A stretch of DNA of 63,391 bases, counting the filler, from Kipferlia bialata (taxonomy: Eukaryota): assembly GCA_003568945.1 (NCBI GenBank). It is 7 parts of 6 records of this genome, joined end to end, with 100 filler letters (N's around TTAATTAATTAA, not from the genome) between each part and the next. Parts side by side here need not be neighbours in the genome. Positions count along the whole stretch, not along the records: positions 1 to 12,304 come from BDIP01001101.1; 6 more parts are not named here. One strand, written 5' to 3'. The notes beneath the pieces were generated by a model. That model did no database searches and was not told the DNA's origin. It saw only the letters and a list, made by a program, of their open reading frames with translations. The stretch's first letter is position 1, and each line of letters opens with the position of its first letter. Of the stretch, positions 6,901 to 9,900 are shown piece after piece. The position numbers and the translations under genes were made by a program.

Positions 6901-9900
6901 TATACATATATATATTGGTATATTATATCTATATATTAATATGTATACATTCATATCTATATGGCATGAAGCTGGACAGAGTGTCATACGAACTAACTAG
7001 GTATGTGGACCTGTATTGTTAGTGTTTTATGTCTCATACAAACTCACAAGTTTACTAATGTATCTCTGTTCTCTGAATTTGTGTTCATGGATATGTGAGA
7101 ATACATTCTCTCATCTTCATCTCACTCCAGCACCCCTGCTCTCTACACCCTTTTGGCAGAGCTGGACCTGTCGCACAACAGACTCGACAGCGCAGGTATG
7201 ATGTGCAGATGTACATCTACTATATTGTCATTTGCTGTATCATTCTCCTTCTTCCACAGCTGGACATACAATATATATTTGTCCTTTCACCCCAGGTCTC
7301 TCCCCCCTCACCTCTTCCCTGGGTCTCTTCACAGCCTTGAGGACACTGGACCTGTCACACAACCAGTACGTATATGCATATTTATACAACCACATTATAG
7401 ACACTACTATCTATCTTTTCACGTAAATGAGAAGCCCTCACGATACTGGATCAGTACGTATTCAGGGCACCATCTACAATTTATTGATTCTAAAAATTCC
7501 GATCACTGTGTCACACACACTCGGACAATAGTACATAAGATCAGAAGCTCCTATTGAATTTTGTATTGTTACTTGTCACACTTCATGTCTAAGTGTAATT
7601 TCTAGTGACTCTCACCATCAGCCTGTCCTCCGTTGACAATCACATTTCAATTTTGTATCCATGTACATTATTGTATGTATACACTTATGTACTGTACCCC
7701 TCACTGTCAGCCTGTCCTCTGTGGACAATGGCATTGGTGACTCCCCTGGCCTCACAGTCCTATCTCTGTCACACAACAGACTGGGCACCCTGCCATCCTC
7801 ACTGGCACACATCCATAGCCTAGTGACCCTGGACCTGTCATACAACAAGGTTAGTGTAGCGTACTCTATCAATTCATATATTGTATATATATACACTTGC
7901 ACACATACACTCTTTGGTGACACTGGACTTGTCGTACAATAAGGTTGGAATATGTATATACTATTGATCCTTCTGACCTTAGGTTCACCGACGCTGCCCT
8001 GTCGGGCATGGTCACATATACCATTAATATAGTGTACTATATACAAGATATATACATACTATATTACATAGTATAGAGTATTAGTATCAGAGATTTGTTT
8101 ATGTACAAACCTCTTTGCAGCCTATATTATTCCCCATACACTCACACCTAGTTCACCGACGCCGCCCTGTCCGGTATAGACTACCAGGGCCTGGGGGACC
8201 TGCAGACACTCAACCTCAGCCACAACAGGTGAGACTGTGTTATTGATATTGTAATATAAGTGAGTAATACATTGTTGGACCTAGAAACACTGCTCAGCCA
8301 CAACAGGTGGGACTGCATTAATACATATTTGTATACTAGTATTGGCACTGCAATGTAATGGCCTCATGTGTTCTCCACTCTTAATCCAGCCTCACCCCCC
8401 TGCCCGACTGTCATTCTCTCTCTCTCTATCGGTTTTCCCCCCTCCCTCTCTTACTCCAGCCTCACCTCCCTCCCTGACTGTCTGACCAGACTGGCCAAGC
8501 TCAGGGTGCTAGACGCATCTGGAAACAGAATAGGTATGTTTCATTACTAATTTGGCATCCTATATGTATGTGGATAGTCATTAGTTGAGCTGAGAGTGCT
8601 GGAGGTATCTGGAAACAGAATGATAAAAGAATAATAAGAATAATTGTATATTACCTGTTCAATTATACGTATATCATGTTTCTCTCTCGCTCTAACCCTC
8701 CAGTCTCCATCATGTCCAAGCCACACCGCCTTGTTAAGCTGGAGGAGCTCATCCTGGAGAACAACGACATATCGGACCTACCTCCTACCCTTGGTAAGTA
8801 TCAAAGTATTCATTCACTCATATATTGTGTTTACAATCACCTTGTGAGTATTTAGAGAACAATCATATCCCACCTGCCACCCACACTGGGTAAGTGGTAG
8901 TACCCAAATTTATTGATACGTTCACATCTATCTCGCCGTCTACCCATGTATATATGTATGTATATATATATATATACTGTACTAACCTCCAGGTCTGCTG
9001 TCCCCCGATGCCGATGCCCCATACGGTGGAGTACTCAGGTGAGAGTAGTATATAGACATAAGATAATGGTGTAAATGGATCAATAATCTATATATACTAT
9101 AGTCTTCCATATATTTGTGCATTGGGTGAATATGTATACACGTGGAAGGGCTAAATCATTTGCCTGAAAATACTAATCGATGTTCACGATATTCCTTGTA
9201 ATTTACCCCTAGGCACCTGAAGCTGAATGGCAACCCCCTCAGGAGACTGGGCCAGAGGGTGGCAGCCAGAGGGACAACACATATACTAGGTATGATATAT
9301 ATGTGTAAAAATACATATATTAGTATATATACATAGAGAGAGAGAGAGAATCATGTTGATATATACAGTCAGAGGGTGGCAGCCAGGGGGAGAACGCACA
9401 TACTGCGGACTGGTTGTGCATTCCTTACATACCCAGTACGTATCAGTTGATATGCATATGTATCAGTTGATATACCTCTAGTCTGACACCAGAGTATCTG
9501 TGCCACATACCTATACACATATATATATATATGAGGGATATTACTATAATTTATCCCACTCCAGAGTATCTGCGCCACAAGATCCGTGCCGGCACTCTGA
9601 CATCATTGAGGGAGGAGGATGGGCAGAGTGATAACGGGAAGGAGAGAGAGAAGGAGAGAGAGAGAGAGACTAGCAGGGCGAGGCCAGCAGAGAGGCTTGT
9701 AGTTATAGATAGTGGGAGGGAGAGGGAGAGAGAGAGCAGCAGGGGAAGCGGTCAGTCCTCTCCCTACTCACCTGACCAGTGGCACAAGAGGGGAGGGGAG
9801 AGAGAGAGGGAGAGATACTCTGAGAAGGACAGGGAGAGAGACAGATACTCTCAGAGAGAGAGGGAGAGGGAGAGAGCCACTGTGGGTAGCCGGGATGACT

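Follow-up and report, generated by a model that had tools for sequence, protein, structure and literature searches.

Splice sites that are repeated or nested within one intron are known from several systems. In recursive splicing, an internal acceptor is directly followed by GT, and in stwintrons and other nested introns the removal of an inner unit builds the splice signal of the outer one. Introns can also be gained when a segment that contains AGGT is duplicated in tandem, which creates extra splice sites. The closest precedent for the arrangement described here is intron 7 of human F7, where a 37-bp VNTR lies across the exon–intron boundary and carries functional pseudo-donors, of which only the most upstream is reported to be used (PMC1557585). 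How a cell chooses among such sites is commonly framed as exon definition, which favours whichever sites lie closest across the exon, or as intron definition, with short introns favouring inner sites (described in PMC9225289); protists are said to use mainly the latter (PMC2397502).

Here, we describe duplicated splice junctions in a 63,391-nucleotide stretch of DNA from Kipferlia bialata (assembly GCA_003568945.1), which we call the window and along which all positions are counted. Kipferlia bialata is a free-living protist of a lineage close to Giardia. Many of its introns in the window contain copies of their own flanking exon ends together with the adjoining donor, or of the acceptor together with the following exon start—hereafter ‘echoes’. 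A literature search, mostly of open-access papers and without bioRxiv supplements, returned no description of them; nor does the genome paper, as far as its available parts go, describe them, and the string ‘duplicat’ is absent from its main text (PMC5874029).

The window consists of separate contigs joined end to end, and adjacency across the N runs, each with a short AT-only linker (12340–12400, 15880–15970, 23000–23080, 35380–35470, 47770–47860, and 60150–60250), is therefore meaningless. All echo counts refer to this window and to 145 modelled introns in 19 gene pieces, curated by hand after the use of two gene finders, one over-permissive and the other calling echoes micro-exons. Uncertain introns, e.g. 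around 40276–40645, 56348–56487, 12900–13900, and 35550–37000, were excluded. Three of the models are identical to deposited proteins: 757 of 757 residues plus 51 of 51 for a leucine-rich-repeat (LRR) protein (P0122), 831 of 831 for the K. bialata MCM protein (our MCM3 model), and 1133 of 1133 for KIPB_004928, although these proteins are AUGUSTUS predictions with transcript hints and the agreement is not independent proof. Searches with single exons gave 100% identity to the MCM protein, KIPB_004928, and the LRR protein KIPB_004920.

Two assembled contigs bear on the LRR gene. One DNA contig (X1, depth 424) covers 6965–8935 in a single piece with 0 differences, and the copies in that interval are thus present in DNA reads; X1 is possibly the source of the window DNA and hence tests the assembly rather than the strain. 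Elsewhere, 98% of sampled words of 29150–35300 are present in a sequencing run. None of the runs is catalogued as RNA; the other contig (X2) is treated as RNA because it skips GT–AG introns, and it constitutes the RNA evidence: one contig from one gene. Four modelled introns have GC donors (802–1302 and 48706–48798 on the plus strand; 58320 and 58044 on the minus strand), two of them in models equal to deposited proteins. In a CoA-transferase-like gene, the stretch at 56348–56487 has a branch-like motif followed by TAT and lacks the AG before an 11-residue stretch, which may be a broken or non-canonical acceptor or a sequence error.

The intron for which nesting was originally noticed (7850–8151, plus strand, 302 nt) belongs to the partial LRR gene KIPB_004920 (725–11538, plus strand), in which 22 of 29 introns in the model, itself in line with the deposited protein, bear echoes. 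The X2 joint removes it from its outermost GT to its outermost AG, between exon 7711–7849, which also agrees with the deposited protein, and exon 8152–8228, both of them present as pieces of the RNA contig. Within it, just as the original prediction had it, AAG|GTT at 7941–7946 is followed by CTGACCTTAG at 7973–7982; the coordinates are right, and the two sites enclose an intron-like core of 39 nt (7944–7982, echo donor to echo acceptor) for which no joint was seen in the contigs. Alignment places a donor echo of the upstream exon end at 7894–7949: its copied part (7894–7943) is identical to the exon end at 38 of 50 positions, ten of the differences being synonymous and two non-synonymous, and its intact GT at 7944 scores 4.0 vs 4.3 for the real donor. 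The aligned acceptor echo (7973–8009) contains a branch site and AG, an extra G, and a copy of the next exon start, and scores 12.0 vs 8.9 for the real acceptor; the copy (7984–8009) matches the start of exon 8152–8228 at 23 of 26 positions, all three differences being synonymous. Owing to the extra G, the acceptor echo at 7982 reads AG|GTTC rather than the real AG|TTC, so that joining there would recreate a weak donor. With this G at 7983 the echo has a phase-2 layout, like most other LRR introns in the window, whereas the real intron is in phase 0; the intron may have slid by one base, with the G as a trace of it.

The same nesting, as also predicted, occurs in the intron at 6504–6804 (plus strand), with a donor echo at 6578–6614 (GT at 6615), an acceptor echo at 6708–6736 (AG at 6707; 29 of 29 positions identical to the exon start), and 93 nt between the inner sites. 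The intron at 32139–32581 (plus strand, KIPB_004928) indeed has four decoy acceptors, at 32217, 32297, 32410, and 32491, each an echo followed by GT and scoring 6.2–8.3 vs 8.3 for the real site. For both introns, the outer sites match the deposited proteins and the outer joints rest on these deposited models. In the three introns named so far, each decoy carries a 16–58-nt copy of the adjacent exon. The further claim that the frame survives only with the first donor and the last acceptor stands for 7850–8151, where all single-step alternatives reach stops, but fails for 32139–32581, where the decoys at 32491 (adding 90 nt) and 32410 (adding 171 nt) yield open in-frame products; window-wide, such products come from seven of 65 intact decoys.

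Longer arrays are found at 2370–2881 (plus strand, LRR gene), with four donor echoes about 90–100 nt apart; in the last LRR intron (10892–11501, plus strand), with five about 115 nt apart; and in the MCM3 intron at 50160–50576 (plus strand), with three donor echoes (GT at 50267, 50359, and 50458) and one acceptor echo (50519). A minus-strand gene (23091–26195) has ten echoes in six of its eight modelled introns, between 23252 and 25521. Echo load is uneven between genes, as an aldolase-like gene with four introns and several other genes have none.

When each exon was aligned locally with the introns on either side of it, 86 matches emerged, of which three were dropped (two with a score of 26 and one lying 90 nt from the junction). 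The remaining 83 echoes, 50 of donors and 33 of acceptors, occupy 48 of the 145 modelled introns; the score threshold was reached by 0.8% of foreign exon–intron pairs, which puts the expected number of false matches among the 83 at about two. The echo ends within 10 nt of the junction in 85 of the 86 matches, and the unit thus spans the exon–intron boundary, exon end with donor or acceptor with exon start. No echo spans more than 83% of its exon. Successive sites are mostly 70–140 nt apart, and a repeat scan unbiased by exon models, from which low-complexity repeats had been filtered out, recovered 80 local repeats, 43 of them at a spacing of 80–120 nt and mostly exon-derived or siblings of one another. 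Introns without echoes have a median length of 96 nt and each echo adds 101 nt, echo-bearing introns being about 265 nt long; among the 45 introns longer than 200 nt, 34 bear an echo. The innermost core left between echo sites has a median of 90 nt, the size of a normal intron, and does not fall below 40 nt. In the ten introns with both kinds, donor echoes always lie 5′ of acceptor echoes, an order expected from local duplication of each end. Single arrays hold up to six distinct versions.

Exons have 59% G+C and introns 38%; TATA occurs 5.9 times per 100 nt in echo introns vs 2.6 in others, echo introns being also AT-richer. Identity between echo and original is about 92% on the exon side, high by construction given how echoes were found, and by the fifth base inside the intron is down to some 33%, against a null of 27%; the intron sides are significantly alike in 20 of 77 cases. 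A breakpoint footprint of the kind left by simple tandem duplication was present in only 3 of 55 arrays at p<0.02, the overall test being negative (p=0.37), and no enrichment of dinucleotide repeats or microsatellites at echo edges was detected (p=0.78). Two general readings of the echoes were considered and rejected: cassette exons, since only one donor echo has a strong upstream acceptor and only two acceptor echoes have a donor behind them, and a cDNA origin, since donor echoes continue into GT instead of the next exon.

Some repeats lie outside this pattern. Short-period donor repeats at 40930–40985 (24 nt, in frame and open) and 38470–38531 (14 nt) fall below the usual minimum spacing of about 70 nt, and the few other close echoes are those at 50519 (57 nt, in frame and open) and 30596 (56 nt). 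Selection may act against decoys that lie close by and out of frame. A tandem duplication of about 100 nt at 11518–11720 runs across a stop codon into the 3′ UTR, its non-coding part still alignable, and in-frame tandem repeats internal to exons occur at 40069–40178 (27 nt, four copies) and 33106–33158 (24 nt, two copies).

Most echoes retain usable splice signals: the GT is intact in 40 of 50 donor echoes and the AG in 25 of 33 acceptor echoes, and the median difference between decoy and real score is 0.0 for donors (n=40) and −0.35 for acceptors (n=24). A donor that equals or outscores the real one lies inside 28 of the 145 modelled introns, and such an acceptor inside 15. The RNA contig X2 nevertheless joins the outermost GT–AG sites of 7196–7295, 7366–7710, 7850–8151, 8229–8459, and 8534–8703, and also, by a loose end, 8793 to 8993 (intron 8794–8992). 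In four of these six introns it skips echo sites that roughly equal or exceed the real ones (9.9 vs 9.1, 12.0 vs 8.9, 6.1 vs 5.4, and 5.1 vs 4.0), which supports the proposal that outermost sites override near-perfect decoys. X2 contains no inner joints, though contigs drop rare forms. Among the sites used is a donor, at 7366, that scores only 1.6. Free choice among strong sites was calculated to give 1e-5 correct mRNA across 27 LRR introns; decay of wrong products would therefore be insufficient, and the choice must be strongly biased.

The bias can be put simply: the first donor past an acceptor and the last acceptor ahead of a donor would win, and the intron would be removed in one step. 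The spliceosome would then be picking, on the two sides of each exon, the pair of sites with the shortest distance between them. In all six X2 introns the outermost sites are used, in four of them despite inner sites of about equal or greater strength, as exon definition has it. We infer that outermost choice fits such cross-exon selection. Transcription order or 5′-to-3′ scanning could explain the donors but not the acceptors, where the last site wins. Exonic G+C context could serve as an equivalent cue, selecting sites without pairing across the exon. Of the proteins relevant to bridging across the exon, SR-like proteins and U2AF65 are reported as detected in K. bialata, and U1-70K, U2AF35, SF1, and Prp40 as not detected (PMC6679479).

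The original prediction had offered a second possibility, namely that inner pairs are removed first. The inner pair would leave before the outer one, or the outer donor would join an AG|GT echo acceptor and recreate a donor, and selection would keep the echo sites for this purpose. Such a scheme would account for the strength that echo splice signals retain despite divergence, for the intact GT and AG dinucleotides counted above, and for AG|GT at 7982, by its extra G, and at all four decoys of 32139–32581; weak donors are demonstrably used, as at 7366, and under intron definition short introns are expected to pair their inner sites (as outlined in PMC9225289). Yet donor and acceptor echoes coincide in ten introns against 9.4 expected (p=0.47, gene-stratified), so nesting is at the level of chance, and strong decoys are one-sided in 26 introns (17 donor-only and nine acceptor-only), where an inner splice would consume the one partner unless the site were recreated. 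Recreation is uncommon: only seven of 25 intact acceptor echoes, in three introns, restore a donor, and only seven of 40 donor echoes restore an acceptor passing a score of 5. The regenerated donors score 1.1, 2.0, and 2.8 where the 5th percentile of real donors is 3.2; four of 145 real donors score at most 2.0, one of them RNA-verified. Exons starting with GT stand behind acceptor echoes in two of 25 cases vs 22 of 120 elsewhere (Fisher p=0.25), the echo at 7982 being a third AG|GT case by virtue of its extra G, and AG|GT also stands at 32581, the last acceptor and the real one. The 39-nt inner unit is shorter than every modelled intron (the shortest being 40 nt and the next 47), the outer GT, branch site, and AG are intact without inner removal, and the codon-level conservation of the echoes would be left unexplained. 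We consider stepwise splicing an unlikely explanation, and recursive splicing is not supported as the general rule; it may have a minor use at 7850–8151 or 32139–32581, where AG|GT occurs.

What most constrains the origin of the echoes is the way in which they differ from their exons. Third codon positions account for 136 of 213 echo–exon differences, and 62% of the differences are synonymous. Among unique differences, 117 of 195 (60%) are synonymous, where a neutral copy would give 29% and a neutral copy of an exon that itself takes only silent changes 45% (p=1e-5 against the latter). The excess persists without CpG sites (93 of 162) and with the LRR gene left out (60 of 105; p=0.011), and survives removal of MCM3 and of gapped alignments. 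It also holds for donor echoes (80 of 125); acceptor echoes alone (37 of 70; p=0.16) do not significantly exceed the 45% null, and variants among sibling echoes (37 of 66; p=0.054) likewise miss significance. The overall pN/pS is 0.23 (0.16–0.30 in a bootstrap over 48 introns, with none of 5000 replicates at 0.5), whereas neutral decay predicts at least 0.5. Splice signals are similarly kept: in the 30 echoes with changes at donor positions +3 to +6 the mean score change is −0.19 vs −1.68 simulated, and in the 23 with a changed acceptor region −0.9 vs −5.2, in simulations that used only echoes with GT or AG kept, had no indels, and scored with a matrix trained on models including some echo sites. 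Silent bias and kept splice strength together imply that the copied sequence was selected as exon and splice site during most of its divergence.

The reading that we prefer, at a probability of roughly 60%, is that the echoes are junction copies skipped through the choice of outermost, i.e. nearest-across-exon, sites and captured from other working alleles by recombination. On this account, the copies probably came from other functional alleles. If the species is diploid and polymorphic, homologues would recombine through unequal exchange or the repair of breaks, and the junction of another allele would come to lie next to the resident one; the TA-rich introns of the homologues would no longer match while the exon ends still did. 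Later exchanges between echo and exon would expand, shrink, and refresh the array, and nesting would be a by-product wherever both intron ends duplicate independently. The model would require silent diversity of roughly 10–15%. At 6965–8935, covered by one DNA contig, no second allele was seen as alternative letters, although contigs drop variants, and a metagenome scan for an ortholog from another isolate found none, giving two distant intronless MCM loci. The MCM3 array adds a constraint of its own. All 12 differences between its donor echoes, at the end of the exon encoding Walker B, and the exon are silent, and the differences form a mosaic among the four copies; in the intron parts about 92% of aligned columns match, and the silent sites differ far more, so that allele capture needs short conversion tracts here.

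Ordinary tandem duplication on the same chromosome, followed by neutral decay under outermost-site choice, with the silent bias as a by-product, would do without other alleles. Young arrays that are alike along their whole unit (37844–38041, 95%), the 20 of 77 similar intron sides, a microhomology footprint at the MCM3 array, and the occurrence of a 100-nt duplication in a 3′ UTR all speak for it; the observed pN/pS lies well below the value that it predicts, the splice-score decay that it also predicts is not seen, and the fall in identity just inside the intron is against it, all of which make it improbable to us. The main alternative to allele capture is indirect selection, under which echoes would frequently overwrite the working exon end, by conversion or replacement, so that those with damage to amino acids or splice sites are purged, with no need for high allelic diversity. 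It accounts for the silent bias, the kept splice signals, and similarity confined to the exon side without a second allele, none being seen at 6965–8935. It would, by our reasoning, demand very high conversion rates or population size, and the RNA contig bears exon letters instead of echo letters while 81 non-synonymous differences persist; we regard it, too, as having little probability. An assembly artefact, with two haplotypes stitched in tandem, would draw on the resemblance of echoes to alleles and on a genome that is probably diploid, as k-mer peaks suggest (reported in PMC5874029), but it is scarcely credible given that the independently assembled X1 contains the echoes of 6965–8935 unbroken, with 0 differences and a depth of 424, that nearly all sampled words of 29150–35300 recur in the sequencing run, and that single arrays contain as many as six versions.

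Set against the known systems, the Kipferlia echoes most resemble the F7 repeat, in that a tandem unit straddles the junction and intact pseudo-sites are absent from the main mRNA (in six introns, on one RNA contig). F7 is a single human locus with donors only and identical 37-bp units, whereas in Kipferlia 48 of 145 introns are involved, at both ends and with units of about 100 nt that are not near-identical throughout, their intron parts being mostly unalignable and their exon parts silent-biased; moreover, the last acceptor wins in Kipferlia, which 5′-to-3′ scanning does not cover. As in exon definition, the outermost intron sites, nearest across the exon, are preferred; that model concerns exons between long introns (PMC9225289), and Kipferlia is a protist with basic introns of 96 nt, echo introns of about 265 nt, and an apparently near-absolute preference. 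Intact internal sites, including AG|GT at 7982 and at 32217–32491, are shared with recursive splicing, intrasplicing, and stwintrons, but in Kipferlia AG|GT is unenriched, regenerated donors are weak, and the outer signals are uninterrupted. Duplication across an AG|GT-type sequence adds splice sites here as in AGGT-duplication intron gain, except that an existing intron is lengthened, no new intron arises, and the order is always nested. Notable features are the scale, the preference for outermost sites at either end of short introns in a protist, and the signature of coding selection in non-coding copies.

More broadly, and as a tentative proposal to which we give somewhat less than even odds, K. 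bialata introns may grow and turn over by capturing the junctions of homologous alleles, their arrays archiving once-working exon ends and splice sites that rotate through the functional position, an arrangement tolerated under the near-absolute nearest-site rule of a reduced spliceosome. Intron definition predicts that the inner of two equal sites wins, and in Kipferlia the outer sites win at both ends, which is unexpected for protist introns of 96 nt. With one-third of the sampled introns bearing echoes, existing RNA reads could show at scale how the choice of site depends on distance, strength, and context, and in a genome of 124,912 introns (as reported in PMC5874029) the proposal, if true, would offer natural experiments on duplicated splice sites by the tens of thousands, together with a sample of the population within a single genome. 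Echoes also mislead gene predictors into false micro-exons. The silent bias would point to a way for introns to grow whereby non-coding DNA records past coding selection, and possibly recombination and allelic diversity as well.
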